NCBI GenBank assembly: GCA_003971905.1
Contig: RSEE01000001.1
Span: 372,001 to 436,000, forward strand
Length of the DNA: 64,000 bases
DNA from: Moniliella sp. 'wahieum'
Taxonomy: Eukaryota
Reading direction: 5' to 3'
In this document: piece after piece, positions 18,460 to 64,000 of the stretch
How positions within the stretch are numbered: the stretch's first letter is position 1
Layout: the number at the start of each line of letters is the position of its first letter
Made by a program: the position numbers and the translations under genes
Notes under the pieces: model-generated
The model's input: only the letters and a program-made list of their open reading frames with translations
Told to the model about the DNA's origin: nothing
The model's database searches: none

Positions 18460-19247
18460 GGTGGCATGGGTGGGCGTGGGGGTGGCAGGATCGGGGGCTC
18501 TTCTCGTGGTCGGCGTGAAGCGAGACGAGTGCTATTGCTGCCCAGGTTGGGTCGCGTCAGACGCCTCGCCCACGCAGATGTCAAATCCCAGTCCTGTGTG
18601 GCGCGTCGCGTGTTCCGCCCTGGCCGCCCGTGCAAGCTGTGGTAGGTAAGCAGATGCAATGTTCAATTCGCGCGGCAAACCGCGGCCACAGTTCGGCCCG
18701 ACGGAGGCGGCAAGCGTTCCGGGAGTGCTTCTCCGCCACGCTCTCGGATCCTGGCTCGGCTACGCCACGCCGGCGGATGCGCCAGGCGTGAGGCTCACTT
18801 GCTGAGCCTCGGCGCTGCGCCCAAGTCGAGCGGCGCATGGGCTGGATTCCCAGACAGGCACCCGAGTTGTTGAGCGCGCTCAGCCTCAGGCGCTCACGCC
18901 GAGCGAGCCCACAAAGGCCCCATAGGGCGGCAGGCCAACTGAGCGCTCATGTCATGCGTCATCGATTAGCAGCTGCCCTGTGACAGGACAGCCAGCCATG
19001 CCCCCAGGTTCCCCAGTAGTCATTAATCGTTTTCAATGCCTCGCTAGTCGCGGCAGGCCACGGCACGGAGAAAAATCTGGTGGGTGAGGTCGACGAAAAG
19101 ACAACGATCGGAGCCACCTGTTGAGCCGGTAGCGTGGTATCAGGACAATCTATGCCATCCGTATAAAGGCCGTATCCCGCTCCCAAACGACCTCTACCCC
19201 CCTCTCCTCCCACATTCGTAGGATCAGCCTCTCCTCCTACCGGCATC

Positions 19248-22484: not shown

Positions 22485-23155
22485 TTAAGAGAAGGACAGC
22501 CGCATGCCCAACAGTACCCCCAACGTCGAGACCAGCAGAGTAAACGTGATCAACGCACTGATGGATACCTCTACACGGCTGGGGGAGAATCTACCCCGAG
22601 TAAGTTGAGCCTGGACCCGGAAGAAGCGGGCAGTACCCAGCAGCATGACCACGATGCCCAGCCCGATAAACGAAGCGCCGAGCGGCTTGCCGCTGAACGT
22701 TGCACCACAGGGTGGGTCAGACTTCCTTCCTCGGGCCAAAGATAGAACAGGAAGAAATGAGACGTACATCCTTTCCAGTGGCCAGGACCCAGACGGGGCA
22801 GGAGGAGGGACAGATAACAGGTGTTGGAGCGCACGCTGCTGTTCCAGCGGATCGGTAAGGCTCTGGGCGAAAAGGGCGAGGGAGGAGGCGAAGGCAGCTT
22901 CCGCTTCAGGATCCGATCCCCATGTGGAGTCAAAGGAGGAAAGATCGGGGATCTTGAACAGCTGTGTGATGGCAATTCCCGCCGAGACAAGTGCGACCGA
23001 ACTGCGGAGCCAGGCGAGAAAGGTACGCTCCAGCGCCAAGTGGTCGCGGGCCACCGAGCCCTTGTTCTCCAATTCGAGTGCTAGCTGTGGCGGCGAAAGG
23101 AAGCGCCACCAGCGTCTGGGTTCTGCTCCTGCTTGCTCAGGGCAGCGCTTGCCAT
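22485..23155 (-). CDS. DUF202/YidH-like small membrane protein; intron 22693-22767
   Basis: LENKGSVARDHLALERTFLAWLRSSVALVSAGIAITQLF, GKPLGASFIGLG..GTARFFRVQ and a third TM segment. Confidence 0.9.
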
Positions 23156-23673
23156 GGCACAAACAAGGCGGATGTGCTGGACGTGGAGGAAAGAAACGCA
23201 GCTTAGGTAGTGCCGAAGGTGGGAAGGTTGGCCAATCGAACGAGCACGCAAACGCGAGCTTGTGGGTAGCCGCTACGCCGGCAAGAGATGATCGGTGATC
23301 ACGATCAGCCGCTGAGCTCAGCTGGGCGATGAGGTGATGTGCTAGTGATGCTTGATGGTGCACACACTGGGATCCACATTTTGAAACCAACAGAACTGGG
23401 ATCGCCTGCCGGCCGCACTGCCGTCTTCTGCCGCTGGCGTGCGGTGCACTCGGCTGCTACAGCGCCCCCTGCCTGCACCACCCGTGCCCGCCTCCGTCGA
23501 GCCGCCCCCTCCGGTTGCCCACCGCCGCACACAGCCGCTGTGCTCGCCGGTGGGCTTGTTTACTGGCCTGCATGTTGGCTCTCCGTATATACGCACCCCG
23601 CTTTACCCGCCACCACCACCACACCTTCGCTTTCCCCCAGGCTGCCCCTTCTCTTCCCTCGCCAACAGACGCC

Positions 23674-26966: not shown

Positions 26967-28939
26967 ATGCTCGCCCCATCGCCGCCTCCCCCGCGTGCCG
27001 CACACCGTCCCTCGCTGCCACTAGGCACCCGAACCGGCACCCTCGGCACTCCCACTCCCACCGCCACGCCCACGTCCGCACCACACCCGCCCCCAGCTCT
27101 CCATCGCCGCACCGCGGCCCCGGCGAACACGCATCCAACACTCTGCTTGGCCTCCGCCGCCGCCGCCGCGCTCCGCCACGTCTCGTGCTAGCGCCCGGAA
27201 TTAGCAGTCATGCACCAATTGCGGCGCCCCTGGCCACAGCTGGCGTCTCCCCTTCCTCCTTTGGTCGCCTTGCCACACCCGCCTTCTCCATCGAAGCAGG
27301 GGAGGACGCCGCTCTGGCTCTTTCCACTAGCGCGTATGCTTCCGGGCCCGTACAAATCCTCCCCCGTCTATTTCTTTCTGGCGAGCAAACGGCACATGAC
27401 CCGGCTGTCCTCGCGCGCTGCGGCATCACCACCATCCTCACAGTCGCATGCGAGTGTAAGTTCCCACCCGTCTTGGCGCCAGCCCGCTCTCCCACAGACG
27501 CAACAAATCTTCCAGGCACATCTGGTCTTAATCCACCTTCAGGAGCTTGTGTGCCTTCCCCGCATTCTCCCATAACCCCGCGCAGCCCACACACCCCTCT
27601 CCGTCTCGCCTCGTCCACACCCAATCTACGCGCGTCCCTTGCGCCTTCGGCGACAGGCGGAACATGTCTTCCTGCTGGTACGCGCACAGCTACTCTCCCT
27701 CCTGATCCAGCTTCGTCACGGCCATGGAGCATTCAATGTGTTCTTCTCCCATGGACCCACGATCAACCGGACCTGGCTGCCCCAAGGCGGATTTTCGGCC
27801 GCATGTGGTGTGATTGCTGATGGCCTGGGCTTGTCTGTCGATAGCCAAGGCGTCCTCACCGGTCCGGCCAGCGACGAGTTGGACATGGCACCCGTCTTGC
27901 CTACCGAGCCACCACGCAAGCCGGCTGTACTGGTTCACTGTCAATGTGGTATTTCGCGCTCGGCAACAGCGGTGATTGCCTATGTAATGCAATCGGCCGC
28001 ACTGGGTCATCATCCGGCCCTGCTGGCCTCGCTACGTGGGATGCACGACGCATATACGCGTGTCAAAGATGCTTCACCAGCTATTTCGCCCAATTGCGCC
28101 CTTCTGTACCAGCTGGTCGAGTGGGAGCGCCATCTCGCCGCTTTAACCTCTGTTCTCCGGTGCCAGCGCTCCCATCAGCTCGAGGTCGCGACGCTGTCTC
28201 ACCTCCTACTCCTGGATTTGGGCCGGGGCTCAGCCAGGCCTTCCAAGGCACCCCTACTTCCTCTCCCACCAGCACGTCCCCCGCTAGCATCTACTTCTCG
28301 CCAATGCCTTGGTCTCCGGCTGCCCCCCCACCACTGTCCGCCCAATTAGCGGTTGTGCCCTCGCAGGCTGATGTGGCTTCTATCTCTCCTGCCAAACCCA
28401 CGATGAGCGATGTGCCTTCCTTCAATGCCGACTCGCACTCTGTTCGTTCCCCTTTACCATTTCGTACCTCAACAAGGCCACTGTCTATGCGGTCGCAATG
28501 TCGGACCCTCCCACTACGAAACCACCCCCATTATTCGGGCATTTCAGAAGAGCTTCTTTCCCCCGAACGCGCATCGTCGGAGCGTAGGACAAGTGCCAAT
28601 GCTCTACCTCTTGCATCGCCGGTTACATTTGCGTTTGCCGACTCTCCTGTTGCAAGGGAGCGGGAGCCCGCGGCTGCGGTCCTCCCCCCCCCTCGGGTTG
28701 ACGATCCTCCGCGTGCATTTGGAACGACCTCTTCCTCCCCCTCCCTTCGACGCCAACTGCACCGCCGTACCTTCTCGGCTGAAATGGGTGGATCGCCCCT
28801 GCTGAGTCCACAAGTCCCAATCTTCAATCCAAGCGCGAGCACCCTCACGACCCCTTCCGTGTCTCCCTTGGTGCTCGAAGCCGAACCTCGTTCCGCCCGC
28901 CCGGACCCCCCTTCCCTGCTCGCCCCGGCTGGGCCCTGA
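26967..28939 (+). CDS. Dual-specificity MAPK phosphatase (Msg5/Pmp1/Rok1 type)
   Basis: AYASGPVQILPRLFLSGE, GITTILTVACE, LPWTHDQ, catalytic VLVHCQCGISRSATAVIAYVM, AYTRVKDASPAISPN. Confidence 0.9.
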
Positions 28940-31832: not shown

Positions 31833-32525
31833 TCCGGCCCTGCCTCCCTGATGGGCTGCTACCTTGTTTGGTTTTGTGCGGCCCTTGGATTTTTCCTTTC
31901 TGGCTGGGGTTGCGGTACGAGATGAGAGGGTGGGGGATGTTTGGCCGCGACCCTATGCGATCTGCTTCTCTGTCCTAGCAGCGAGACTTGTGATGAGCCG
32001 GAGATGGCGGATGGAGCCACATGGCTGGATCGCTGTTCAGCTTTGTTGCGTTGGCGTTGGAGCTGGAGGAGCTGGAGCTGGCGCTGGCTGTTATATTGGT
32101 GATGTTGGTTTTTGTCTCCCTATTCTGCCATTCGTTGGCCTGCCCTGCCCTGCCCGCCTGGTGGCCTGGGCACGGGCCAGGCCTGGGCCGCCACGAAAGG
32201 CGAGCCGCGATACCCGTCCCACCTTCGCTGTCCGTGTCTTTTTTTTAATGATCGACCCTCCCACCACCCTTGCTGTAAGCTGTGCCAGGCTGTATGTGCT
32301 GTCGTGCGGTGCCCCGCTGGCGACGGGGGCGTGCTAGTGGCAGGGATTCATTTCACTGGCACCGAGTACCTGAGAATCAGACTCAGTCCTGATTGGCGAC
32401 AAGCGCCTGACCGAGTGCGTGGGCACGTGACCCCGGGTAGGGTGGGACGTGCGCGGCGCGGCACGGCAGCACAGGGCGGCACTGGGGCAGCGGCGGCGAG
32501 GATAGTCGATAGCCTCCCTCCCCGG

Positions 32526-35500
32526 ATGTCCGTCAACCCTTTCAAACGTTCAGGCGCTCACCGTCTACGCTCACCGTCAGCGTTCGCTGGGCGCAGCGCA
32601 GGGGCAGTGTGCTCCCCTGGCGCCACATGCGGCAGGGGGGCAGCCACCACGTGGGCCCGGCGGGTGCGCCCAGTGCGCTCTCCTGCCTGCCCCCCCCGCC
32701 TGGATCCCCCGCGAGCTGACGGCATCAGCCGAGTCGCTCCCTCGCTCGCTCTCCTGCCTGCCCCCACCACCTCCGCTGGCCTGCGCGCGCATGAGTCTGC
32801 CCTCGGAGCTCACCATCACGCTCCCGCCCACCTTCGGCACCAGCTTCTGGCCCGCCAGCGTCGGCGCCCAGGCCAACCCCGACCCCAGCCCCGAAGCCCC
32901 CCTGCCGCCTGGTCCGCCACGCCGTACCGCCTCCCGGTCGAACGCGCCTTTGCCGCCCTCCAGGCCGGGCTCGATCTCAACACCCGCTTTGTCCAGCACG
33001 TCCAGCGCGCCGAGGCTGAGCTATGCCCCACGCCCTCTCGGCCCCCGCCGCACCCACCGTGTTGCCTCCCCTGTCTTCCCGGGCGCTGCGGCGGCTGAGC
33101 GTTTGGTGCCTGGCCCTGCCGCGCTCGCAGCAGAGCGCGTGCCCGGCCTCGCCCACGCCGCTTCCGCCATTGCCTCGGCGCAGACGGCCGCCACCGTGCC
33201 GCTCTCCGTCCAACACGCCGCGGCCGCTAGCGCACTAGATCAGTCCGTCATCACTCCGCTGGCCAAGTGGCGAGGAACATGCGACGCGCATCAAGGCAGA
33301 CCTGGGAGAAACTCGAGACGCAGCTGGACCAGCTCTGTGACAGCGCTGATGCCTTGGAGCGCGTGCGGCAGAACTACTATGCCAAGTGCCGCGCTGCCGA
33401 CGAAGCCGAAGACGATGAGGCTCGGTCTCCCTCCGAACCGGTCCCTCCTGAAGCCGACTTGCCCAACTCCGCCTCCCCCGAGGGCAAGCCTTCCCTCCTC
33501 CCTGACGAGCCTTCGGGCACAGAGGCACCCGTGGAACCCAAGCCTGCCAAACCCCAGCGCCAGGGCACCCTTTCTTCCTTGGTGCACCGTTTGGAGGCAT
33601 CGGCCCAAGCAAACCCTGTGCTGTCCAACCTTCGGCAGGCGGTCGGTCTTGCCGAACCCAGAGCGGTGCGACTGCGCCGGGAAGCCATCCAGCTGGAGAA
33701 CAAGTATCGCAGCGAAGTGGCCCATGTGGATTTGGCCAGGGCCGAGTGGGACCGTGACTGGGCTTTGACACTCGGCAAGATGCAAGGCTGGGAAACCCGC
33801 GCGGGCGGGCGCTCAAGGCAGCTTTGGGCAAGTACGCGTTTGCCCTCGCCGCCCTTTTGCCGTCGGGTACGCCCGCTGCCGTTGAACTGGCCAACTTGCC
33901 TGCCTCGTACTCTTCCACAGCGGATGTTCTGGCCCTGGTCCGGGCCTATGGCTCGGCTCCCTATCTCCCTCACCCCCCGGTCTTTGCGCCTTTCTACCCG
34001 CATGACCCTACTACCCTGGCGGGCTATGGGCACATGGGATTTGGTATGGACCTGGTCCGTTGGACCCGGGGTCGGCCTTGGGCGCGCTCCCTTCCGAATC
34101 AGGGGAAGTGGACTTGGACGAGCTGGCTACGGCGAGCTCGGGTCTGCCCCAGCCGCCAAGGGCGCCCGTGGCTGCTGCACTGCGCTTACGCGGGCGTATG
34201 CTGACCCGACTCGCTGGCCCGTGACGGAGGGTGAGGCGGACTCGATGAGCAGAGAAGGCACGTCAGGCCGAACGTCGTCGGGCGTGGATCTACGATGTGC
34301 CGCTCTCGGCTGTGCATCGGGTCCGGTTTGGTCTGATTGCTGCGCTGAGTCGTGCGCAACCGGATTCGGTCATCTTTGCTCGCGTATTGGACGTTGCCGA
34401 CCCGCCCGTCTTGGCTGCTTGTGTTCGCACATGGGCAGAAGAGCTGGCTGTCCCTTGTGCCTCAGACACTGTGGGACACGGTGTGGTCCGTCTACCGTGC
34501 CGCTTCGGACCAAGCGGACCTGAAACGCAAGGCTCTACCTGACCAGGAGGAGCCGGCTGCGCTGAGTGATGCCGATGCAAAGGAGATCGAAGCAGCGACC
34601 GAATCGGATTTGCGCTCGGTGCTGCTCAAACTGCCCAAGGTGCATATCGCCTGTCTCGATGCGATCATTTCGCCTCTGGCTACGCTATACCAGGCCGACA
34701 AGGGCGCCGACCCTGCTATGCGAAAAGATCGGCATCAGTCTCGGCCGCGCCTTGCTTCGTCCTCCGCAAGAACGAAATGGCACACGTACCGACGCGCCAC
34801 CCGTCGCTGTTGGCGTTGGACTTGATAGTGCGGTACGACCGCACCTTGGCGCCGGTCGTTAAGGAGGCGAAGGAGAGCAAGGATTTCCTGGGCTTTGGCA
34901 GCTCCGAGGCCGATCGCCGTAAGGCTCAACAGGCTCTCAGTCACCCTCGTCGTACGCGGCCTGCTACGCCCCCGCCCTTGGCCCAGCCGGGGAAGCACTT
35001 CGTCCATGCCCCCTGCTGGAGCACACTACTCTCTTCCCCGCTCGCACAGAGTCCGTCGGCGGAACCTGCGTCGCTGCCCAAGGACGAGATGGTTTCTTCC
35101 AAACCTCGAATCCCCAGCTTGCAAACCGATGCGAATGCGCTTCGTCCTCCCTCGAGTGGGGTCAAACGGCAACCGTCGCTGCGCCAGCGAGGTCAGGCTG
35201 CGCTCGACTCGATTGGAGATGCGTGGGCTCAAACGCCCTTGGCGGAACGTGTGCTCGGCTTCTGGTCCGAATCTACCACTCGCGTAGCCGACGGCTGGGC
35301 ATCTCTCCTCTCGCAGGAAGACCAGGAGAGCGACACGGAGACGCTCACGGGTACCGCCCCCCAGACGACCACCTCTTCGGCGCCTCAGACCGAGACCGAG
35401 ACGAGACTGAGGCCGAACTCGGGCGGAGAAGGAGAAGGAACCCGATTCGGGAAACGGGAAGCCGCTGCAGTTCCAGCCGCGGACGCACGGCGACGCAGCC

Positions 35501-36728: not shown

Positions 36729-37657
36729 TTAGGCTTTGGTGAAGATGGCGACATCGTGCGGGAAGAGATCGGCATCGGTTTCGGTGGTGGGGTGACCAGC
36801 CACGACGTGCGACCAGCCGGTAGCTTGGCCTGCCGTAGCAAGTGCCGGTCGGCCCAGCGTGCATCCTCCCACACACGGTTTCCACACCACATTCCATGCC
36901 TGTTGGACTTTTTGCGTGAGCGCGCTGCTCGAGCGCGCATGCTCAAACAGGATCAGCTTGCCCCCGGCTTGAGCAGCCGTGCGACCGAGGCCAAGATCGG
37001 TTTCGGATCCGGCACCGAGCACAGCACTTGCACGCACACCACCGTATCCAGCGTCCCGTCCGTCAAGCCGGCCTTGGTCAGCGCCTCGTGGTCCTCGGCG
37101 GAAAAGGGCAGGATGTGCGCTTTGGCTTGCAAGCCTTGGCCTTGGGGCGTCAGCGACGCCGCGCGCAGCGACGCGCGCAACCCATCGTGCAGATCCACAA
37201 ACGGTTCCAGCAGGTACAACTCGCTGACCTCGGACGAAGCGTAGTAGGCAATCGTCTTGCCGTCGCCGGCGCCCAGCTCCAGGACGCGGCCCTTGGCGTA
37301 CGCGACCAAGGGCCGCTTCACGTGCGCCCAGTTCTCATCGCTGCCAGCCAACAGGACAGGCAAGCCAGCGGCCAGGATCAAGCTGTGCCACCGGTAGGGA
37401 TTGAGCAGCGTGCTGGCGACACCAACCAATTTATCGGAGAGCGGAGCAGAAGAACGGAGCAGAGTCCCAACCTGCTCCACCTGCGCTACCACCGCCGAGC
37501 GCACGCCCCACACAAACAGGCTCACCAGCGAATCGATCGGCGAGACAAGCCACTGGACCAGCGTGGTGGCCAGGGAGGCGCGGCACGCGGGCTCGACCGT
37601 CAGCCCGAGCTGCTGCAGCACCGCGGCGTCGGACAGGGGGCTGGACGACGCGGACAT
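36729..37657 (-). CDS. SAM-dependent methyltransferase (METTL7/TMT1-like)
   Basis: AKGRVLELGAGDG, DTVVCVQVLCSVPDP, RLLKPGG-KLILFEH, WKPCVGGCTLGRP. Confidence 0.88.
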
Positions 37658-38427
37658 GGAGTTGGAAAGGAGGGAGGAAGCAGGTTGAGGTTGAGGGCCG
37701 TGCCAGACCAGCCAGTAGGATCACTGATCAGCCGGTGACCAATCATCGATCGCCTCGGTTGCGCCCATCGGATTTACAGAGACGGAGGCCAGGGTACTTG
37801 TTACATGCGGGCGGTCAATGTGTAAACTCCTCCACCATCAGTCCTCTAGCATCGTTGGAAGCATTGCCTACCCTCGCCACCAACAACAGCAAAGCCATCC
37901 ACGCTACGGCTACGTAGTTCCCCTCCAAACCCATCCCTGCCTCCTGCAGCCATGAATCCATTTGAATCCAGTCGGAAGCGGGGTACGCGTAAGTCCAAGA
38001 TACGAAGCGTCAACAACAGAATTACAGATAGGACGGGGGACTAGAGAGGGATAAGGCATGGGATCCAAACGCGGGCGGTCATTCGGGCGGTTTAGGAGGC
38101 GCCTCTTCTTCTTCGGGGGGGTACTCCGCCGAGTCGGGGGGCGCTAATCGGGCAGACCAACGCAAACAAACCAAACCCAAGCCGAACAAACAAACAAACA
38201 CAGAAGCAAACAATAGGGGTTAGTCTCGTTCCCATCACCTTCTCCTTTCCTTCCACACCGTCCCAGCTAGTACCAAACCGACGGTACCATCCCTCCACCA
38301 AGCGAGGAAGAAGCCAAAACCAAAGGGGGGAAGGTAAAAGGAGAAGAAGAAAAAGGAGTCAAGGGCCAGAGGGGGAAGAAAAGGACAGGACGTACGAAAC
38401 GGAGTGATCCAATTGGTCAGTTGATCG

Positions 38428-41400
38428 TCATAGGCACCCGGATCGCGACGACGTTGAACCGCTTGTCGTACCCGGTCGTGTACTTCTGCGTGCTGCCCAA
38501 AACCTATCGGTCATCCCGCCCATGATCGCTGTATCGTCGCCCAAGTCCAGGGAGGATGTGCTGTGGACGCGCGAGGGACAGGGATTGAGTAAGAGAAGTG
38601 GAAGCAGACGCAGAGGCCGAAGCCGAAACCGAAGCCGAAGCCGAAGCCGAAGCGGGAGTTGACGTCGACGCGGAAGCGGACACAGAGGGAGCGTGAACTT
38701 CGTTCCACAGCTCCAGCTGTTTGCTATGCGCCCGCACCGTCTTTTCCAAATCGCGGGGAGCCGTGCGATCGGTCCAGTGGCGATAGCCGGCATGCACAGG
38801 ACGCGGGAGCGCAGTCGCCGACTCGGCAAGCTTGCCATGCAACGCCAGTGCCAATTGTGACAAACGCAGCGGGACGGGCAACAAGGATTTGGGTGCCTTT
38901 CCTTCCAACAAGGGGTGCAGCACGTTTCCATACACACTCGAACGCGGGGGCAAGGTGATCAGTTTGCGTTCATGCTTGGCACGGAACGCACGCATGTCCA
39001 GCTCGCCCTGTTGGGCTCGGAAAAAGGTCGCGGCTCGTCGGGCTAGCGCGGTGGGGTTGGCCGTCTGGGCATGCACAGCGGCAGGCAAGACCGAGAGACA
39101 GATCCCGATGCTTGGACGCACCTCGGACACTTTCTGCTTTCCCTATGTGGACCCTTGCTTTTGCTTTTGCTCTGGCTCGGGATCTTGCTCTTGCTACGTA
39201 GAGACTGGGACGATGTGAGCGCACACCCGTTTCCCGAGGTGTGGGGAGCAAGGCCAAACATGGGAGCGGAGAGCCGTGCCGTAGTGGAATCGGGATTGAT
39301 CGCTGCCTTTGTCGGCGTCAAAAACTCCACATCGATTCGCAGTGCAGCGCCCTTGCGCGGTCCAGGCGCCGAGGGCGAAAGGTCAATCACCGTGTTGCCT
39401 AGCCAAGCTAATGCATACAACAAAGGTTCCCAGCTCTCGGCGCGAGCCACGAAGAAGGAACCTTCCCCAGATTTGGCTGTACCAAACCGGGGATCGGGCA
39501 TGAGGGGGATACAAGCCGGGAACCAATCGAACGATTTGCCCCCTTCTGCGGACCCAGAAAACGCTGCCTCAGTGCCCTTCTGGTCGGGGGAGAGGAGAAG
39601 AGATGCTGATCAAATGGGGCAGAAGCCCAGCCCCATTCCAAGCCAGGAAGGGACCGCCAGAGCGTGGCAGAGCCAGCTGTTGTTCCCGTTGTCGTAGCTT
39701 TCGCCCCCGTGGCCTTTGCAGGTTGAGAGAGAGATGACTCAGGAACCTCATGAGGCTTAGAAGATTTGGATGATTTGGAAGGTGCAGAAGAAGCAGAAGG
39801 CACAGAAGGCTCAGAAGGCTCAGAAGGCGCAGCAGGAGCAGAAGGCGCAGAAGGAGCAGAAGGAGCAGAAGGCGCAGAAGGCGTAGAAGGCGTAGAAGGC
39901 ACAGAAGGCACAGAAGGCGCAGACGGCGAAGACGGCGAAGAAGGCTCAGAAGGCTCGGAAAGCTGGGTAGGCTGCACGACACTTACATTCGCATCGCTCA
40001 CTGCTGCAGGGGGTTCCGGCTCTGCTTCGACTTGTACTGCGGTCTCAGAAGCGGGTGCGGAGCCAGAAGCGGATGAAATAGCCACAGGAGGGGGTGGGGG
40101 TTTCCTCCGCTCCGTCTTGGGCGGAGGAGGCGGAGGTGGACGCGAAGGACGCGAAGGACGCGAATGACGTGGGTTATGGTCCGTATTGGCCCGTTGGACC
40201 AAGGTGGGAGGAAGCAACGGTTCCCGCTTTCCGTGAGCAAGGGTTTGGCTACGAGTCGGGCCTTCGGTTGGGGTCGTATCCCCATCCTCGTTCAACGGGA
40301 TGAGGGCGGGTGCGGAGGTGTTGAGCACGGGAGCGGGGGGGAGTGGCGCCCGTTTGGGAGGGGGTGGGGGCGGGCGATGTTGCGAGGGAGGTGAAGTAGC
40401 AGAGGTGGGGAGGGGGGGCAGAGCAGTGCTTCCTAATTCCGGATGGGGGGGTGCAAGGGAGGGGAGGAAAGTGAAGAAGGAAGCGGTGGGAGAGTCGAGC
40501 TGGTGGTGGAGCTCACAGAACTTCGTGGAAGAGGAGGTAAAGGTCTTGGCGCGGGTGTGTCTTGTGACGTGGGAGTGGTCGCACCGCCTGCTTGCCACGT
40601 TGGCGCCTGTGCCGAGTATGGCGGCGGTTCATCAGTCGGGTCCTCGTGGAGGTGCATCGAAGGAAGAGGCAATCCTCCTTCAGTCTCGGGATCGAGTCCG
40701 AGTTGTGCAGCGACTGAGGGCGGTATGAACATAGGCCTGTCAGAGTCTGACTGGCCCACAAGCTGCAGCGTGTGAAGGAAGCTGTCATCTTCCTCTTGCC
40801 TCGGGAAGGAAGCGCTGGAGCGAGAAGAACTGGGTGCATAGACATCAGCCCAGAAGTTGTCCTCGTCATTGTAGCGCTGCTCACGTTCGGCGAGGTATTG
40901 TTGGTGTTCCCGTTGGCTCAGATCCATGGCATGAGCCAGGGACTGGGCAAACTGTTCCATTTCGGCTTTGTGTTGCTCCTCTCGGAACGCGAAGCTCCAG
41001 TGCAGCATCTAGGAGGGCCTGTTGTTCCTGTTCTTCCAAGGCACGACGACGCTCGAGCGCAGCTGCATCCGATGCAGCACGCGAGGCAGCCAGGGCCGCC
41101 GCCAGCTCGTCCTCTCTCAAGGTAGCCTGGCGTGCCTCCTCCTGCGCCGCCCGGCGCGATTCTTCAATGGCAATGGCCATGGCGGCATCGTGTGCGTCGC
41201 GCCGCTGTTTCTCGGCAAAGGCCTCTTGTGCTGTTGAAGGCGCTGGGCCTCCTCGTGAGCGGACTGGGCAAGAGCTTGAGCCACGCCTGCTCGGCCTGGC
41301 GCCGCTCTCGCATACGCGCCTCTTCTTGCTCGCTCTCGGCCAGGGAGGCAGCAATGGCCATGTGCATCGCAGCGTCTGGATCGTCGCTGGGGCGGGGGCG

Positions 41401-42707: not shown

Positions 42708-44970
42708 ATGAACGCCATCGGTGATCGACGTCGCTGGCCCCCGTCGCTGCGTCCAGGCGTCCCCATCCCATCCACCCTGGCATCCATCCATCCCACGCCG
42801 TGTCTCCCGCCTCCCGCGCGCTGCTGCCGCCCACACTCTTTTGCATCCCCCCTCCTCTCCTCTCCCCCCGCCTCGCCCCGCCCTCCTCGCCGCTGCCGCT
42901 GCGGCTCACGCTCACCCCCCCCCCCCCCCGCCAGCCGCGTCTGCTGCGCCGCCCGGGTCCTGCCACGCTCCCGCCCATGCCGCTGTCGCTGCCATCGGTG
43001 TTGCCTGCCTCTGCTCCTGCCTCCGCCTCTGCCCCTGTCTCTGTCTCCGCCAGGCCTACTGCCGCGCCTGCCCTGCTCGTCGATCCTTCCGATGGGTCGC
43101 GTCTGGAGCGCCGGCGCTTCGCCTCCTTCCCGCCCCTTTCCCCCTCCAGTCCCAGCCCCAGCCACGGTCAGATGTACCGCAGGTGTACGGCCCCTTTGCT
43201 GCCCACTCCATGCACGACGTGTGGGCAGCCAAGCGTCTCGTCCAACATGCCCGTCGCCATGCCCTGCCCATCCCTCACCCTGTCCACCCCGCTGCCCCCG
43301 CGCTGGCAGCGCGGCAAAACGCGAGCGAAGACGCCTGCTGGGTAGGCAACGCTGTCCTCTCCTGCTACCCCACCGCCGACACCGAGGTGGTGCAGGGCCA
43401 ATGGTCCAAGTTCATCTGGAACAACAACTATCCCCGCTTCATCCAGATTGGCGCCGTCGACATTTACCTCTTTCGTGATGATGGGGACGTTGTGCAGACA
43501 TCCTGGACCAGTATCAACAACCACCTTGGCCGCATTTCCTTTAGTCCGGGGGACCCATGGTGGCAAGACTTGCCACAGGCAGCCACCATCCAACCCGGCC
43601 AAAACGTCTCTTGGCCCTTTTACTTGTCGTCACCCCAGCTGGTATGGGTACTGCTTCGGGTATCACCCGCCAAAGCACTTTTACTGCCATCCAAACCGCC
43701 TTGCCCACTTCCATTGCCCTTGCCCGTTCTTCTTCTTCCTCTGCCTCCCTCGCCAGCGCAGCCGCCGCTTCTTCCCGCTCTGCCTCTCCCTCGCTGCTCA
43801 ATCTATCGCTTCTTCTCTTTGGTCCGCTACCCACACCCTCTCAGGGGCGAGCTTGTCTTCCTACCTCTCCTCCCTGGGTGCCTCGGAGACGGCCTCGGTC
43901 GTGTCGCAAATCAGTGTCTCCATCGAATCGTCCCTGCGATCCGAGGGGTTTAGCGGGACCCAAACTGGCCTCGCCACTTTGACCACCACGCTTGCCGATG
44001 GGCACACCGTCACTGCCACCGCTACAGCCCAAGCCGACGGTGGAGCATTGAACGAGCACATGCATGCCTCTCACACGCTCCCACGGTACGCCATTGCCCT
44101 CATCGCCGTCTTTGGTTCGCTCGCCCTTTTTCTCGCCTTGGCTGGGGGTACCTGATCTGGCGCAAATGCCGGCGTCAGCCAGGCGCTGCGTCCAAGGAAA
44201 AGACAGGGACCAGCATGCGTTCCACCTCGCCCATGCTCGCCCCAGTGATCATTCCTCAGCACGAGCCACGCCCCCCTCTCCTTTCCTCTCCACGGTCTCC
44301 CATATCAGGACCTTGGGTGCAAGAAGCCTCGCCCGCTTCTCCTGGAATGCTCCCTACCCCGCTCACCTCTCTCTCTCACTCTCGCCCTGGCCGTTCGTAC
44401 ACTACTCCTACCGAGGTCTCCGGTACCAGCCTTGCAACGCCGCATGAAGAGACGTTGTGGTCCGACGAGGCGAGTCGGATGGCCGATGCGTTCCGCAACG
44501 CGTTGCGCCGACCCTCCTTTTCTGTGTTGGCCGAGAGCGCATCGGGCTCCTCCCCCGCCTTGGTCGCCGCACCTTCCAGGTCCACCTCGGCCCTGACGGG
44601 AGCAGGGAACGCAGGTCTGGGGCTGGGTCTCGCCCATGGCTCTCATAGCGAGACAGCCGTCGTTCCAGCCGGCGTTGGAGGAGACAGTAGTGTGCGTACC
44701 ATCCTTGCCCTCCCCGCATCTTCGGGGGCGAAGCCGATCGTCCTTCGCTCTCGCAGTTGCTCCAGCAAGAACTGGCGCGGGACGGGATGGAGTTGCGTCA
44801 GGTCCAGAGTGGGTCCAAACCTACAAGCACCCTCTCGCCACCCCTTTCCCCTTCCCCTTCTCCCTTCTCCCTTCCTTGCCCTTCTTCCCTCTCCTGCTCG
44901 GTTGATTACCCCTTTTGAGCCAGATTATCTATACCTGTCCACGTCCTGTACGGCCCCCACTTCTCTTTAA
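42708..44970 (+). CDS. Single-pass membrane protein with extracellular domain and Ser/Thr-rich stalk (start uncertain)
   Basis: LSCYPTADTEVVQGQWSKFIWNNNYPRFIQIGAVDIYLFR, Ser/Ala-rich region, TM YAIALIAVFGSLALFLALAGG, cytoplasmic EASRMADAFRNALRRPSF. Confidence 0.7.
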
Positions 44971-51533: not shown

Positions 51534-53214
51534 TCATGCGGTCCCCAGCAATTGGCATCGCACGCACGCGCATACGCATACGCCTCGCGTAGTTCCTCGG
51601 ACTCTCGTTTTTCCCGGCTTGCGCCAAGCGTTTCGAGGTCCACCAGGTCCAGCGACTCGTCCTGGTCCCACTCGGACTCGGTCGTCCAGCCCTCGCCGGC
51701 GCTGGCCCCTGGGGCCAAGGCGGCAGAGGAGCTGGCAGCCGAGCTGAGGGGCGAGCTGGAGCGCATCCGCGCTGGGGGCGTCAGCCAATGACCTGTGATT
51801 GACAACGACCCGCCATCCGAGGGAGAAGGAGGCAGACGCGTAGGCGCAGTACGAGAAGCACGGTACGACCGCGAAGCTGCTACGCCAACCAGCACCAGCG
51901 CAGCAGCAAACGACGATCCAGCCACTGTTGCCGAGCAGCTTGATAAAATCAGCGTCGCCCGCGTGCCAGGAGGAGCCGTAGTAGTGACTGTAAAACGCGC
52001 CCGGTTGGATGTGCAGGCCTGGAGGCGGGTTCTGCAGCTGCCATAGAGGATCTGAGGCAAGATGCGAATGCCGGTTGTGCCGCGTCGTGGCGCTCGACTG
52101 TCGAAGGCAGCGCCGATCCATGCAAGCGCGTGTACTGGCCATAGGCACCATGAAAACATGGGCCAGTCGAGAACATGACGGTGGCATACGGGATCAGGTA
52201 GTTTTTGTTCCACTGGCCAATCAGCTGGATCGCTGGGTGAAAAACGGATGGCTCGGGGCGGAGAGCATCAGGTCGTTGGTACGCCCACCGGCTTGGTTTG
52301 GGGCAACACCACTTCAAACTGAAGCAAGGGGTCCATGGGCCGGACGCAACCCATGTCCAAGTCCATATAGATGCCGCCATAGCGGTGCAAGACAAAGTAG
52401 CGAATCGCATCGGCGCGCTCAATGTTGTAAGGGTAGGCATCAAACGTGGGCAGGAACCAAGCGTACTCGGCCGCAATAAAGGCCCGCGCATCGTCGTCGG
52501 TCCAAAGAATGTAATCGTAGTCCGGGTGCATGGCGCGGCACCCTTGCACATTCTCCTTCCACTTGGCCGGCACCGACGCTGTCTTCCACGTTTGGTGGAT
52601 CAGACGCGGGATCTGCTCCCCTTGCCTGCGAGGACGGGTGCCATTGTAGCGGCCAGGCTCAAAGTGGCCAAAGTAGGCACTGGCATTGTAGGTGGGAGCC
52701 CACGTACCGGGCGACACGCGCCGAGAAGGGTGGGGAGCCGCCGAGGTGGGTGTGGTAACGTCGGAAGCGGGGCTGGATGCAGCGGCAGCACGGGACCAGA
52801 GGGATCGGAGGGAGAAGAGCTGGGCAATGTGGGGGTAATTGCGCTGCCAGTTGAGCTTGTGGTCGTCCTGGGCCGAGCCAGGGGGCGCAAGATTGTCGGG
52901 GCCAGACCGGTGGAGGAGGGGGCGTGATCGAAACGAGAGTCGGACCAGTGGAAGGCGGGGTAGACGAGGGTGATCTCGCTGGGAGTAAGGAGAGCGTGGG
53001 GATCGGTGTGGAAGAAGGCCCAGACCGTGCCGAGGACGACGAGGGTGCCAAAGAGCAGCAGGGCACCGATGGCGAGCAGGGTGGTGAGGGCGCGCACAGC
53101 ACGCGCTGGGCGAGCAGGGGCTGGGGACACGATCGGCGGCGGGGCAGGCGGCGGGGCAGGCAGCGGGGCAGGGCGTAGGCGGCGCACCGGCAGGCGATCA
53201 GCAGCAAGCATCAT
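51534..53214 (-). CDS. SUR1: Mannosylinositol phosphorylceramide synthase catalytic subunit (GT32, DXD)
   Basis: N-terminal TM, IPRLIHQTWKT, YILWTDDDARAFIAAEYAWFLPTFDAYPYNIERADAIRYFVLHRYGGIYMDLD, YATVMFSTGP, HYYGSSWH, and a second TM. Confidence 0.9.
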
Positions 53215-53507: not shown

Positions 53508-54700
53508 TGAACGTTGACATGTGACATGTGACATGGGCCACGCGCCACGCGCCGAAACGAAGATCATGCATCGTGTGTCCCATGTCATGCATCATGTCGG
53601 CTGCCCGTGCTTGAGGCTTGAAGCTTGAAGCTGGACCTGCACTTGGCAGTCGCAGCCCAGTCGCAGGCGCAGTCAGTCGCAGCTGCGTTGCACTTGCGGT
53701 CGCAGCCTGTCGCAACCAACCCGATGCAACTATGACTGATCATCTCGTTGAGCGGTCAGGCTGACCCCGCTCCAGGCCTCCCCTGCCGCCGCGCGAGGAG
53801 TGGCAGCCGAGTGGCAGGGGTGTGGCAGGGCGCCTGGGGTGGCATGGTGTGACCTGTGCCGGTGTGGCTGCCCAGCACCGGGCGTTGCCTGGACGTTCAA
53901 TATTCATGTCCAACTTCAGTACGTTCAACCTGAACAAGCCGTGGTAGTCGCTCAGTACTCACTTCACTAGCTTCACAGTCAAGCATTTTCAGTGCTGCGT
54001 CCAGGGGCAGGCAGGCGCAAGCGTGGGACAGCACAGCGCGCAGGCTGTGGGCGGTGCGCTTTTCTGCGGTGGATCGGCGGGGGCGCAGGAATGTGGGCGC
54101 CGCGGAGCGGGGGCAGTGTGCCCTGCATGTCAGCCCTCGGCCGTCGTCAGCCGTCGCTGCTCCGGCGCTCATCGATCATCGATCATTGCTTCAGCCTCTG
54201 CATCTGGCTGATGACATAAGCAGCCATCGATCATCGATCATCTGCCATCATGCGTGATCGATGGTCGCCATGCATATGCATCGTCGATGCCCTAACCCTA
54301 ATGCGCCCCCTGGCCACGTGTCGCCATGACATCACCGCTTGGCCCTGGCCAGAGCCCACCGACGCGCCCAGGCCATGCTGCCTGCAATAGCGAACGCTGG
54401 GCAAGTTGGCCCAGCCGACTGTACTGAGTACTGAGTAGAACTCAGCTGCAACCCGCTGCTCAACTGCCGACGGGCGTGCTGTTGCGCATTGCGCCCTCGA
54501 GCACGCCCTCAACGTTAAAGCCCATCGTCCATCGAGTTACTCCCTCTGCCTCGTGCCTACCTAGACCTACCTCCAAGGCATTCTGCATCGACCCTTCTCC
54601 GGTTGATCGCCTCGGTGGCCGACATGAAGGTAGAATTGATGCCCATCGCTGGCAAGAGCGGAATGAGCACTCAGACTGAGTACTGAGACTGAGTACAGAG
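53508..54700. repeat. Dense set of TGA-NNNN heptamer arrays in the SUR1/UBP15 divergent intergenic region
   Basis: TGAacgt (TGAcatg)3 at 53508; TGAggct (TGAagct)2 at 53612; (TCGATCA)2 at about 54172 and 54227; TGAgtac TGAgtag at about 54425; TGAgtac TGA at about 54678. Confidence 0.8.
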
Positions 54701-55366
54701 TCGTGCATACCGTTTTTGTGGTGCTCAGCTTGAGCGGCTCAATGTTCAATCACCACTGCTCCGTACTCTGGGCTATGTGACGTACCAGGTCAGGCCGATG
54801 ACGATGACAACAACAATGACAATGACGGAGGAGGACGAAGTTCCTGCATCTTGCCATCTGGATTGGATCGGAGCGCTTGAGCTGTTGATGCCTGCTGGTG
54901 CTGATGAGCGCTGGAGCCACCACCGCCAGGACCGGAACAAGATAACGGGTACGAGGAGCAGGAACGCTGGCCTTGTAATGAGATAGATGCTCGATACCGA
55001 TGCTCCTCGGCCTCGGCCGCGGCGCCTTGCTGCCCGAGCGCGTGGGGCACGCCGCTCAGCGTGGCCGCAGGCGCAGAGGCGACCCTGCCGCCCGCGCTGC
55101 CCGGCTCGGCGGGGGCGGCCGCTGCCAGAGCCAGGCCTCTGCGAGGCACAGGGGCAGCCAGCGGCGCCCAGGCCAGCTGAACATGGTGCAGATACACTGC
55201 CCCCGTGCCTCTGCCCCCCCCCCCCAGCGGGCGACGTCGACACGACATCCGCCGGCCAGTGCGCCTCTCGGACTTCCACCACCTCCACCACCTCCACCGC
55301 CGCCGGTGTTGCTGCTGCTGTTATTGCTACTGCTTCCTGCGAGTCTCGTGCAAACGGCTTGCTGCC

Positions 55367-59111
<3,745 letters not shown>

Positions 59112-59481
59112 CCTGTCGCTTGGCGTATCTGCGACCCGATCCAGTCGTCCTGGCGCATGGCTGTTGGCCCCTTGCTCATCCGTATCTCCATCTCCATTCC
59201 TACCCCATCTCTGTCGTCATCTTCATCGCTATCTCCATCTTTGGTCTCTGGCCCTGGCCCCTGGGCATTCCTATCTGCAGGATCCCTGGACCGAACCCAA
59301 CTCAATCCAACCTGCCGCCTTGCCCCTCCCGTCTTCCTCTGCTGCACTAGCACACCCATCTTTGCCTGCTTTTCTTGGTTTGTGGTTTGTAGCCGGGCCC
59401 ATTGCCCATGTCATTCTGCTTGGGGTAGGAAAGAGGTGAGGTATATATGAATCTGGTGATCTACGCGCATAGATGCCGGCG

Positions 59482-59959
59482 CTAATTGAGGTCCTGCATC
59501 AACACCTCTAGCATCGTAGGGTCCAACGCGTTGAGCCCCGCCTGGACCAGCTCGGGATAGGCGGCCTGGGCATGCTGAAGCGCAAAGCGCAGGTACTGTA
59601 CCAAGTCCGTCTGCGCCACACCGTATCTGCCGCGGCCAAGTTGCGCAGGCGCGCCGCGCCCGGACGGGCTCGGGTTAACTGTTGCCACGGACAAGTCACA
59701 TCGAAGTGCGAAAGGAGCATCTTCCGGGAAACAACCAGGCCCCACCGACAGTTCACGTAGTGCCCCGTAGCTTGGGGGACACCCTTACTCGGCGACACAT
59801 TCTTCGAGTTGCCTGTGTGGTAGCCCACCACGCGCTGCTTGGCTGAGCGCAAGCCAACCAACAAGGCTCCAATAACTTAGACTGCCAGGCCAGAAGTGAC
59901 CTTGCTGTCCCATCGCTCGTTGTAACTGCTGTCAGTATACAATTCCTGCGGTGGGCCAA
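59482..59959 (-). other. Orphan frameshifted coding-like fragment
   Basis: Overlapping ORFs end in GRYGVAQTDLVQYLRFALQHAQAAYPELVQAGLNALDPTMLEVLMQDLN*. No family recognised. Confidence 0.25.
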
Positions 59960-60269
59960 CGGTACGAGGGAGCCTGAGTACTATAGACCAGCAGTGTTAT
60001 CCAAGTAGCCCCATACCCCCGTCAAAGCCGTCCACAATGTTTTTGGGGACCAGGGTCTGCGCAGCATTGGCTGAGGGGCCGCACAGCAAAAACAGTGTCC
60101 GGTCTGGTGCAGGACGCGATCCATACAGCCCAGTGAGTTCCCATTTCACTGACGAAGTCGATGCACCCCCTTTTCCAAACACTTTTGCTCGCCTGCGGCT
60201 CGGGGGCCGAGCTGAGTCCCGGTAAGGAGAGGGGCTGGCGATGGGGCGGCTCACCCTCACGCCCAAGCC

Positions 60270-60845
60270 ATCGCATGTGCTCGCTTTAATACAGCCATCC
60301 TGAGATACATGGCACTCTCCAGTTTGGAAGACAAATCCCACACCAAAGAAGTATATGCTATAATGGCCCGCCGTCCACGACATCCACATGTTGACGTTGG
60401 TCCCGTAAGAAGTTTTGTAGTAATATATCTCTGTATAGGTGAAGCAGCGACGCAAGCATCGTCGACCCGTATCCAGAGAATGGCCACATCTTCTGCAACC
60501 CGTATACGAGTAAACACGCACGGGTCCGCCATAGTGTAGCCTCAGCCTCAGGATGGTTGGACATCAGGGCCTTCTTTAGCAGCCACACCTTACCATCCTC
60601 CCCTCCGAAATCCTTTGGCGGTTCCATGTACCCGTATTCGATTGGTTGGAGGTCGGCATAACGAAAAGCGGACACTGGCACATATTGCAAGTGAAAAAGG
60701 GCCAGTCAAGACGTAGTGCCAGAACGGTCAGCAGTATTAGCGTGAAGTGTGCAGTGGCAGCAGGGGCAGACAACGTAGCTGTATCATATTCAAGGCCAGG
60801 GCGTTAAAGGAAACCGTGTCCAACCCACCGGGCGCGACGTCGAAC
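60270..60845 (-). mobile_element. Decayed Ty1/copia reverse transcriptase (RVT_2) relic
   Basis: RARWVGHGFL*RPGLEYD, SAFRYADL..YMEPPKDF..KVWLLKKAL, DPCVF..ILWIRVDD and YFFGV..HVSQ are collinear with copia RT motifs. Stops and frameshifts present. Confidence 0.85.
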
Positions 60846-61636
60846 TAGCGGATGGAGTAGATGAAAACGGTGGCCGCCAAGTTGCACTGCATACCGCCCC
60901 GACAGAGGCGTTAACGGGCGGCAGGGGGTGCGTTACTATCTAGTTCGCGCAAGATGTGTTGGGGGAAATACGGTGGACGATGCAAATGCGCAACGAGATC
61001 GAAGTACCTTGCGCCAAGGGCCGGACCACGAGCGGGTGTTTCTGGATGGTGGCAATGCTGGCGCCAACGAGACGCCGTGGGATCCTGTCGCTCACGGCCG
61101 AGGTCGGCTCCAAACACGCTCGGCGCAGCCGTTGACTGCGATCCAGGCACCTCTACGCAAATGCGCTATGAGACCCTGGCCCCTACGCCGTGGTTGTCGA
61201 TGTGGACATGTGGACAGGGACGTGGCTTGCGGCTGCCCCGAGCCGAGGGGTGGCTGCTGTCCTCCACGGGTTGTGGTGGGCCGCGGTAAGAGGGATAGGA
61301 TTGGAGGATGGTCGCTGCGGTGTGGAGGAGCGATGGCTGCGGAGCGGCGCCGCATCGACAGGCACCAAGGGCGGACATCATGCATCAGGCATCATGTATG
61401 CGCGATCAGTGACAATCGATGGTCAGTCCGGTCAGTGCGCATCCGCTGCATGCAGCGGGGCGGTGCGATCAGATGGCCCCGCCGTATTTAGGCCTTGAGC
61501 AGCCGCCGTGCACATGTGCTCTGGCCGCTCCATCCCCCTCGTGCTCCCTCTCGTCCGCACCAGCATCCGCAGTCCTTCTTCCCCCCGCCCCCCTCAGCCT
61601 CCACCCTCGTCCCCGCGCCCTAGGACCATCACCATC

Positions 61637-63976
61637 ATGGGTTCCCCGACACCCTACAGCGCCGTCCCCCCTCGCCACAGGTGGCCAATGCCACTGCCAG
61701 CTCCACCTTCGAGCCCCTGCCCCCGCCTCTGGACGCCCCTGGTGGCCCCGAGGAATTCAACCCGTTTACCCCCCCGCCGCCCGGCACAGACGAGGCGCCT
61801 CCTTCGTACCGCGAGTCGGTCGCGGCCAAGGAGCCTGGTCGCCAACCTAGGTCTGGCAGTGGTCCATCAGGAGAGGCCAAGGCGCGGGAGCTGCACGAGC
61901 AACACTTTTTCCTCAACGTTCGCCTGATCACAGAGGCTACCTTCCGTCAATACCAGGGCTTTGATTTGGCACTCAACAACCGGCGCACCCAGTCGCTTGT
62001 AGACGTACCCAGTCTCAAAGTGCGGAAGACAGACCTGTTCCAAGCGGTCAAAGAGCAGATTGCCCAGCATTTTAATGTTCGCGCATCCGACTTCCGTGTA
62101 TGGGTGTTGGCTACCCGGCAAAACCAGACCGTTCGCCCAGATTGCATCGTGCCGGACAAGACGGAGCTGACGATTGACAAAGTTCGGGAACGTTATTCCG
62201 GCCGGTCGCAAGAGCTGCGGTTGTTTATCGAGTTTGACCTCCCGACCCTTCCGCCGCAGGCGCTGCAGCAAGACCCGGACTGGACCTTGGTCTTCCTCAA
62301 GCGCTTCAGTGTCCAGGACCAAACGCTCCTCGGATTTTCAAGCACATATGTCAAGCAGAGCGATCCCGTGGGCTCATTGGTGCCTGTGATCAACGAACTG
62401 ATCCAGCGGCCTCTCACTGCGCCGCTCTGGCTGTATGAGGAGACCAAGCCAACAATGATTGAGGCAATGAATGAACATACCAGCAGCTTTTCTGAGGCCG
62501 AGATCCAGTCTGGAGACATCATTTGCTTCCAAGAATTCATGCCACCATCCGAGGTGGAGGAGGCTCACGCCCAAGGTCGTTACACTACCGCGCTCGAGTT
62601 TTATGACTTTTTGGCCAACAAAGTTGACCTATGTTGAGATGTCGAGGGTGATCGAGAGAGTTGGTGAAGGGGAAAGCTATACCACACAGGCACTTCTCAC
62701 TGCGCGGGACCGGTGGGTCCCAAAGAAACATGGATTGGCTTTGCCCTTATATGAGACCAAAGCGTGTAACAAAAGGGGTCTAGAGCCGGAGTATCTCTCT
62801 AGAAACGCAATAGAAAGGGGAACGGAAACAACAAGTGGTGCTAGTAGGTTTGGTCTGAGGCATACCCCGAAACCAGTTTCAAATAAGTTTGAGGCAGTTT
62901 GTATCTTGGCTCAAACAATCGCAAAGTTTGGAGCAAGTGCGCTTTATTCAACAACCTATAGTGGTCAAGCCGGCGCCCAAGCAGACGAGTACGACGCAGT
63001 TGAACCTGTCCTTGCACCGCAACCTTTCGTACGATCTCTTGGCTCACCAGATCGGGGGGAAACTGGGGTGGGACCCGGCCAAGCTTCGTCTGTCCTACTT
63101 GTTCGACCCACCTCATCGCCATCAAGAGCACTGCCACTGTGGCCCTGTACGATGCGATGAACGCTCATCTCACCGAGCCTCCGGTTGTCTTGTTTTATGA
63201 GCTGCTGGACGTGCCCTTGACCGAGCTTGAGGCCAAGCGGAATTTGCGCATCTACTGGATGGGCATCCATAACAAGGAGGAGAGCGAGCGGACGTATTTG
63301 CTCAACCGCAATGCTCCGCTCAGTACGTTGCAAGAGGAGCTGGCCGTGGCGGAGAAGTTGACGGAGCATGCATCGGATCCAGTGCTCAAGCCCGGCCCCG
63401 ATGGGACGCTGCAGCCTGCGCTCGAACCGGTGCCAGCTACTTCGTTGGCCTACGCACGTCTGCCCGCGATGCGGGTGCGACTGTTTGAGATTTCACCCAA
63501 TGGCCGCTCCCAGCTCATCTTGCCGCCCAACAAGTACATTAGTGAGCTGGCCGAGCATGCCGAGCTGTTCGCCGAGGAGGTGCCTGGAGGAGTTGGAGTT
63601 GATCTGTGCCCATCAAGCGCGTCAGCACGATGCGACGGCGGGGGGGGACCTGAGCTCCCAGCGGCTGATTGAGGTGGCTCACTTTACCAAAGACCCGCAC
63701 CGAGCCAATGGCGTGCCGTTCCGGAGGGCGACCAAGCTGCGCTTGCGCGCTCGCCTCGCCTTGTCCGAGAAGGAGTTTGCCAAGATCAAGTTTGCGCTGC
63801 TGCGGCCCTTGTCCTATGGCTCCTATCGCGAGACGGAGTATCTCGACGACGAGGCGGTGCTGTACGACCTGGTGGCCAAGGGCTTTGTCTTGGGACTCGA
63901 TCATCTCGACCGCTCTACGCGCGGACACCGTCACGCTGCCGTATCGGCCTACGACCGTGGCATCCACATCTCCTAA
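61637..63976 (+). pseudogene. Chimeric partial duplicate of USP7/Ubp15: foreign PPxY-bearing N-terminus plus UBL region, no catalytic domain, split by a solo LTR
   Basis: 61873-64000 is near-identical to 57313 to about 59134. The upstream segment 61637-61872 is unrelated sequence; from 61681 it reads in frame into the duplicate (ORF 61681-62637). Confidence 0.85.
62632..62953. mobile_element. Solo LTR (322 bp), copia-type termini
   Basis: Starts TGTTGA and ends TCAACA, flanked by the direct repeat ACCTA (62627-62631 / 62954-62958). Absent from the paralogous site at about 58065. Confidence 0.93.
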
Positions 63977-64000
63977 CCTGTTTGCTTGGCGTATCTGCGA

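Follow-up and report, generated by a model that had tools for sequence, protein, structure and literature searches.

A young chimeric partial duplicate of a USP7/UBP15-type gene, interrupted by a solo-LTR-like insert, in a fungal contig

The window analysed here, 64,000 nucleotides of contig RSEE01000001.1 (positions 372,001 to 436,000 of the forward strand; assembly GCA_003971905.1, Moniliella sp. 'wahieum'), ends in two versions of the 3′ part of a deubiquitinase gene. The first is the end of the parent gene, here called A, a USP7/UBP15-type deubiquitinase gene with MATH, UCH and ubiquitin-like (UBL) tail regions that lies on the plus strand at 55547-59111. The second, copy B, begins behind the catalytic domain, is joined in frame to a foreign N-terminal coding piece, and is interrupted by a 322-bp insert. 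A young chimeric partial duplicate is present at this locus, as the initial annotation had observed.

The parent gene was delimited with Pfam and by tblastn with P0151, an orthologue of 1199 amino acids. Pfam placed MATH_2 at 55181-56203 and UCH at 56040-57364, and USP7_ICP0_bdg and USP7_C2 were also recognized. A is intronless and colinear with P0151, with high-scoring segment pairs (HSPs) running from 55547 to 59108 and a TAA stop codon at 59109-59111. These colinear ungapped HSPs switched frame 15 times, with 10 switches in the duplicated 1.8 kb (57313-59134) as against 5 in the unique 1.8 kb (55547-57312); copy B showed only 2, compared with the 10 in the duplicated half of A. The excess in the duplicated half suggests that the consensus of A was assembled from a mixture of reads from both copies. 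At six of the places where A switches frame, the frame-restoring base was present in contigs of a related strain, X1. Small indels (1-2 nucleotides, of all kinds) were very frequent across the assembly of the window, and other genes in it appeared as chains of overlapping frames, for example at 19167-20760, 32103-34520 and 42712-44967. Because the assembly is so error-ridden, small indels, including the offset of the ATG and the two frame breaks of B described below, are not readable as biology, and readings of the window that are based on open reading frames (ORFs) call for polished sequence. P0151 is the closest database relative, 58% identical to the UBL part of the copy, while the closest relatives with a name are basidiomycete (40-42% identity). 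Judged by such matches, the source organism is a GC-rich fungus without a close relative in the libraries searched.

Comparison of the window with itself using blastn returned the duplication in two pieces. A 57313-58069 matched B 61873-62631 at 97.4% identity (762 columns, 6 gap openings), and A 58068-59134 matched B 62959-64000 at 95.3% (1075 columns, 18 gap openings). In A, the duplicated segment (57313-59134, plus strand) comprises the linker helix, UBL1-5, the C-terminal tail and approximately 23 nucleotides of 3′ flank. Both copies lie on the same strand with their starts 4560 nucleotides apart, in agreement with the earlier report that the last ~1.8 kb of UBP15 recurs 4.56 kb downstream. 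The abrupt start of homology reported at 61873 (= 57313) was likewise reproduced: the 60 nucleotides ahead of 61873 gave no alignment with the 60 nucleotides ahead of 57313, and microhomology at the 61872/61873 junction amounts to at most 1-3 nucleotides. At the other side, homology reaches the last base of the window (64000), ~23 nucleotides beyond the stop codon, and because it continues to the window end the distal end of the duplication is outside view. Copy B is a distinct genomic sequence and not A read twice, since it differs from A by an insert of its own, with TG..CA ends and a 5-bp target duplication, by a 27-nucleotide deletion of its own, and by substitutions. Contigs of X1 bridge both 57313 and 58067 in the form found in A.

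The foreign coding piece ahead of the junction (the head, 61637-61872, plus strand) is proline-rich and carries an NPF motif at 61759-61767 and a PPSY motif at 61798-61809. The frame that holds both motifs and the UBL homology was open from 61624 to 62634 (337 codons), which bears out the description of an unrelated, proline-rich N-terminus of ~80 codons, with PPSY, in frame with the copy. The ATG at 61637-61639, with A at -3 and G at +4, was also said to be one homopolymer indel out of frame. As assembled, it indeed lies in another frame that stops at 61925-61927, and one additional C in the run of six at 61666-61671 would join the two frames and give a head of 79 codons; in the fusion frame itself, the first ATG is at 62455. 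Codon usage was scored as log-odds trained on conserved coding pieces of the window. Between 61675 and 61830 the score was +0.27 per codon in the fusion frame and -0.37 and -0.28 in the other two, with true UBL coding sequence scoring +0.30 per codon; the final 14 codons ahead of the junction scored -0.63. A gene start near 61637 is plausible because only in the fusion frame does the head show codon bias, and the spacer ahead of it lacks a coding signal. On this codon bias, the head is probably a true 5′ coding end, that of a gene starting near 61637, perhaps the downstream neighbour.

Exhaustive phmmer searches with the 337-codon frame returned 553 relatives at E ≤ 0.001. Since 147 of the 150 matches listed begin at residue 78 or later, with the junction at residue 84, the head is foreign to the USP7 family; the other three begin at residues 33, 58 and 69 and were taken to be proline-rich extensions. 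None of the matches listed covered the head, and the Atlas yielded no usable match. When head residues 1-83 were compared with proteins of 185-590 amino acids, 54 word candidates were obtained and none scored. A metagenome scan with the ORF gave 171 pattern matches and no relatives. A scan with a USP7 alignment kept 80 loci (best identity 59%), in which tblastn with the head reached at most 30 bits, in proline-rich sequence only; the same 80 loci had no DNA match to the spacer or the insert. Within the window, only low-complexity matches to the head were seen, and neither a second copy of it nor the donor gene was found. The AlphaFold2 model of the ORF predicted the head to be disordered (predicted local distance difference test, pLDDT, 44-60 for residues 1-82), and PPSY sits in a stretch with pLDDT < 60, an accessible region of the predicted model.

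Behind the junction, the proximal part of copy B (61873-62631, plus strand), defined by blastn, Pfam and the AlphaFold2 model, encodes the USP7 linker helix, UBL1 and UBL2 in a single frame unbroken from the head. Homology starts with the linker helix that immediately follows the catalytic domain, at approximately residue 554 of human USP7, and the retained part aligns to human residues 554-789 with ~23% identity. Pfam detected only USP7_ICP0_bdg (profile positions 1-171 of 241) and USP7_C2 in the copy, the former being cut at position 171 by the insert. UCH was not found in 61624-64000 and MATH_2 occurred only in the parent, consistent with the earlier statement that the MATH and catalytic domains are absent; lacking both, the copy cannot be a deubiquitinase. 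The model, built on 48 sequences, was confident for the body of the ORF (pLDDT mostly ≥ 90; predicted template modelling score 0.73). Foldseek ranked USP7 UBL structures as the best matches to it, among them 4pyz (E ~4e-20, TM score by target 0.73) and 5gg4 (TM score 0.83). The initial annotation had described the ORF as a young fusion to the non-catalytic UBL tail. Its chimeric, in-frame structure and its youth stand, but of the tail it contains only the linker helix and UBL1-UBL2; the rest is missing because the 322-bp insert supplies a TGA stop codon at 62635-62637. The 337-codon ORF should not be annotated as a USP7 paralogue.

The insert (62632-62953, plus strand) was recognized by its ends, its target duplication and its absence from A. 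It begins with TGTTGA and ends with TCAACA, a terminal inverted repeat of 6 nucleotides, and its GC content (0.48) is lower than that of its surroundings. A 5-bp direct repeat, ACCTA, flanks it (62627-62631 and 62954-62958) and is present singly in A (58065-58069); in the alignment, the extra block in B between the two homology pieces measured 330 nucleotides. The stop codon of the ORF lies four bases into the insert. The site is empty in A and in the bridging contig of X1, and P0151 is colinear across it. Because of this colinearity and the bridging contig, the insertion is derived in B. From its structure it looks like a solo long terminal repeat (LTR) of a Ty1/copia-like element; no second copy was found in the window. 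If 62633-62961 were spliced out as a GT...AG intron, UBL2 would again be read in frame with UBL3. This is probably a coincidence: the donor, GTTGAG, is non-consensus, and 329 nucleotides is long for a fungal intron.

The distal part of copy B (62959-64000, plus strand; alignment and Pfam USP7_C2) holds UBL3-5, the C-terminal tail and a TAA stop codon at 63974-63976. A 27-nucleotide deletion after 63723 (A 58835-58861) has removed FVVHAHEPL from a stretch of UBL5 that is conserved in P0151 as FVLHAQEPL. Gaps of 2 nucleotides at 63108 and 63586 switch the frame as assembled, so that the USP7_C2 match of the copy is spread over two frames and falls nine conserved codons short. The last 125 codons (63587-63973 in B, 58690-59108 in A) are identical in the two copies, which elsewhere differ by ~1.1%; possible causes of this identity are gene conversion, cross-talk in the consensus and chance.

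The spacer between the copies (59135-61636) is unique within the window, and a codon log-odds scan of its 2.5 kb revealed no coding signal on either strand. A pyrimidine-rich tract (61520-61636) stands directly ahead of the ATG at 61637. Two overlapping minus-strand frames at ~60260-60705 resemble a degenerate copia-type reverse transcriptase (RVT_2 clusters of the Atlas, 0.87). They gave no Pfam match even at E ≤ 5, and none of 101 candidates from a homologue search held up; this possible relic is a weak lead and was not relied on. Rfam had no match in 54000-64000.

Divergence between the copies was estimated by the method of Nei and Gojobori. Over 575 codons, A and B showed 9 synonymous and 10 non-synonymous differences, with proportions of 0.022 per synonymous site (pS) and 0.0076 per non-synonymous site (pN) and a ratio of 0.35. 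In the part inside the ORF, where 248 codons contained eight replacements and one codon insertion, pN/pS was 0.59; behind the insert it was 0.13. By these counts the divergence is small and the copy young, and the pattern is compatible with relaxed constraint, a ratio of ~0.35-0.5 being what is expected when a lineage under constraint (A) and an unconstrained one (B) are added together. Visual comparison with P0151 placed four or more of the 10 replacements on the B lineage (VN to AT, A to S and P to A), together with a 3-nucleotide insertion (K to NE). Two replacements appeared to be derived in A, possibly as errors in its sequence.

Further comparison was made with X1, a relative with ~98% identity (word share 0.08). 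It was represented over 55000-64000 by six short contigs, all of them placed on A; two are less than 90% alike and come from catalytic domains of other organisms. These contigs cover 6 of 30 bins and none in 58311-64000, and are uninformative on the presence of B, its junction or its insert. Over the 743 nucleotides covered, B carries seven substitutions at sites where X1 shows no listed difference from A. At least five of the seven are secure as B-specific, two of three X1 contigs having one unlisted difference each. The divergence between A and B (~1.1%) is of the same order as that to this other strain. One codon (57370 in A, 61930 in B) encodes Ser in A and P0151 and Thr in B and X1, a distribution that is at odds with a simple derivation of B from the present A. 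Gene-conversion tracts between A and B were considered and rejected, as the sites at which A agrees with X1 or with B are interleaved and not patchy.

Taken together, these data favour, with a probability of roughly 60%, a chimeric copy that is real and either non-functional or decaying. The initial annotation had allowed for a duplicate that was dead on arrival, and this alternative fits better than the gene it proposed, given that the insert cuts the ORF and nine conserved codons have been lost. A local duplication would have copied the 3′ 1.8 kb of the intronless USP7/UBP15 gene, from behind the catalytic domain past the stop codon, and joined it to the end of the first ~79 codons of a different gene. 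The duplicated unit would be 57313-61872 (4.56 kb), in tandem, with breakpoints in UBP15 and in the 5′ coding region of the downstream neighbour, and the fusion would be in frame by chance. An LTR retrotransposon would then have hit the copy and collapsed to a solo LTR, ending the chimeric frame after UBL1-UBL2, and the copy would also have lost the nine codons of UBL5. Any product translated from it would consist of the USP7 UBL1-2 module preceded by a disordered head with NPF and PPSY. What is inferred here is that the duplication was a tandem one, that the neighbour was the donor, that the organism itself has the junction and that the copy lacks function. A tandem unit is the simplest mechanism because the copies share a strand and lie a short distance apart, homology runs past the stop codon, the junction is abrupt and the head resembles the start of a next gene.

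Several observations weigh against a decaying tandem copy. The junction at 61872/61873 and the borders of the insert rest on one noisy assembly, and the second copy of the spacer and the remainder of the donor gene that the tandem model predicts would lie past 64000. The two extra bases (TA) that follow the right ACCTA repeat have no counterpart in A. Both 2-nucleotide breaks in distal B, as well as the offset of the ATG, could be assembly errors, and the proximal 759 nucleotides of B form one clean frame while A switches frame ~10 times over the same stretch; because of this contrast the state of the frame says little either way. Truncation of the ORF falls at the boundary of UBL2 and UBL3 and, according to the model, leaves a foldable module. 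Finally, the B-specific changes in the part covered by X1 are five synonymous and two non-synonymous, next to six and three among the differences of X1 itself from A, so that the B branch looks as long and as silent as that of an orthologue. Such a silent-biased branch may result from weak constraint, from descent from a diverged allele (unequal crossing-over between homologues being one route) or from chance, the numbers being too small to choose among them.

The choice between a tandem unit and an inserted fragment concerns mechanism only and stands apart from the estimates of functional status. Possible but improbable is an alternative in which a PPSY-headed gene close by took up a 3′ piece of UBP15 in its coding region, during repair of a double-strand break or through template switching and perhaps with help from retroelement relics in the spacer, and was destroyed by it. 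In its favour, end joining and template switching typically leave junctions with as little microhomology as is seen here (1-3 nucleotides at most), the region contains or adjoins a retroelement-like relic and an insert that resembles a solo LTR, and the window shows no second copy of the spacer. The shared orientation, the distance of 4.56 kb and homology past the stop codon to the window end, however, fit a tandem unit more simply, and no distal junction is seen in the 2.1 kb available. A processed retrocopy was rejected as a reading, as the parent is intronless and the 3′ end lies beyond the window and neither hallmark can be read. Unlikely as well is an artefact of assembly, either a false join at 61872/61873 from a chimeric long read or a haplotype, allele or copy misplaced behind A. 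The parent gene with its 15 or more frame switches, the 1-2-nucleotide indels of all kinds, the noisier duplicated part of A (10 versus 5 switches per ~1.8 kb, which is what mixed reads of two copies might give) and a junction seen in this one assembly would all suit an artefact, and with a divergence from A like that to another strain, B could be an allele. An allele, though, should include the catalytic half, yet none is present at the junction, and a repeat-mediated join would not yield two complete copies one after the other, separated by 2.7 kb of unique sequence. Nor would an artefact readily account for a transposon insertion with its target duplication, a 27-nucleotide deletion and substitutions, all private to B, or for the fact that the junction keeps the frame of a coding piece with codon bias.

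About as doubtful as an assembly artefact is a working young chimeric gene, transcribed from the promoter of the donor and translated from the ATG at 61637, with the C run miscalled, into an NPF/PPSY head on UBL1-2; the LTR would supply the stop codon and perhaps a poly(A) signal. Its product could recruit Rsp5/Nedd4-type ligases, or endocytic proteins with EH domains, to whatever binds the UBL1-2 surface of Ubp15, or compete with Ubp15 for these partners. Several features are in keeping with such a gene: a frame of 337 codons runs without a break over 1011 nucleotides in an assembly that otherwise breaks frames, codon usage of the head is coding-like and its ATG has A at -3 and G at +4, the truncation leaves a UBL1-2 module predicted to fold with confidence, five of the seven B-specific changes are synonymous, and AATAAG occurs at 62882 inside the insert. 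Ubp15 also acts in the Rsp5-ART network, where it reportedly limits Rsp5-dependent ubiquitination of PPxY-bearing ART adaptors (PMC5415021). Against this, the ATG is off frame as assembled and the first ATG of the fusion frame comes only at 62455, pN/pS in the retained part (0.59) is indistinguishable from neutrality, and ~12 substitutions are so few that chance alone would leave the frame open. No related protein of the same architecture was found, with no match to the head and the closest UBL relative 58% identical. Motifs such as PPSY and NPF, four and three residues long, also arise by chance in the proline-rich sequence of a 60%-GC genome. Still more improbable is an expressed newborn gene whose head binds EH and WW domains and in which the solo LTR has been domesticated as the source of the stop codon and poly(A) signal. 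If that were true, the newborn protein could tether Rsp5-type ligases to clients of Ubp15 or act as a dominant decoy, and would rewire the balance of Ubp15 and Rsp5 that controls endocytic adaptors. No library searched contained a PPSY/NPF head joined to USP7 UBL1-2, an absence of little weight as these libraries hold no close relative of the organism; no literature search was made for the architecture.

Elsewhere in the window, neighbouring genes recognizable by Pfam encode a sedolisin/kumamolisin propeptide (9599-10381, minus strand), ribosomal protein L7/L30 (13711-14541, minus), a class I/II aminotransferase (20095-20760, plus), a DUF202 protein (22488-23456, minus), a dual-specificity phosphatase (27576-28346, plus), a methyltransferase (36956-37720, minus) and a DXD glycosyltransferase (52271-53197, minus). 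A 77-nucleotide unit is repeated head to tail, with 82% identity, at 39778-39953.

If the chimeric copy is real, the locus offers a snapshot of a chimeric frame made by local duplication and remodelled almost at once by a transposon. The pairing is suggestive, in that a ligase-recruiting motif would sit on the partner-binding module of a deubiquitinase that opposes that ligase. Both processes are textbook ones, however, and this is one unverified locus in a noisy, unannotated fungal assembly. In practice, it serves mainly to caution annotators.

Adaptors of Rsp5/Nedd4 ligases that bear PPxY motifs include ARTs, Bsd2/NDFIP and LITAF-type proteins. Like them, the head is predicted to be disordered, is proline-rich, and has PPSY followed by acidic or polar residues as well as NPF; unlike members of such families, it shares short motifs only, and homology searches with the head found no such family. 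The parent gene has the full MATH-UCH-UBL architecture of human USP7/HAUSP and yeast Ubp15, whereas the copy is without the MATH and catalytic domains and has UBL3-5 and the C-terminal activating tail cut off. Crystallized USP7 UBL1-2 (4pyz, 5gg4 and 5c6d among others) is matched by the model of the copy at E ~1e-20, and by their entry titles the matched structures were solved with peptides of RNF169, UHRF1, DNMT1, ICP0 and Pol iota. The insert resembles solo LTRs of Ty1/copia-type retrotransposons in its TG...CA ends, inverted repeat, 5-bp target duplication and empty sites, and differs from them in lacking a second copy or an internal element in the window and in the extra TA. In Drosophila, tandem duplications that ignore gene boundaries are described to form chimeric genes (PMC5460883). 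As in those chimeras, the 5′ part of one gene would here be joined to the 3′ part of its upstream neighbour, with both copies in the same orientation and a few kb apart, in frame and recently; in contrast to them, the second half of the unit falls outside the window and copy B already carries a transposon insertion and a deletion. In sum, the copy and the insert each fit a class already known, chimeric partial duplicates in the one case and solo LTRs in the other.

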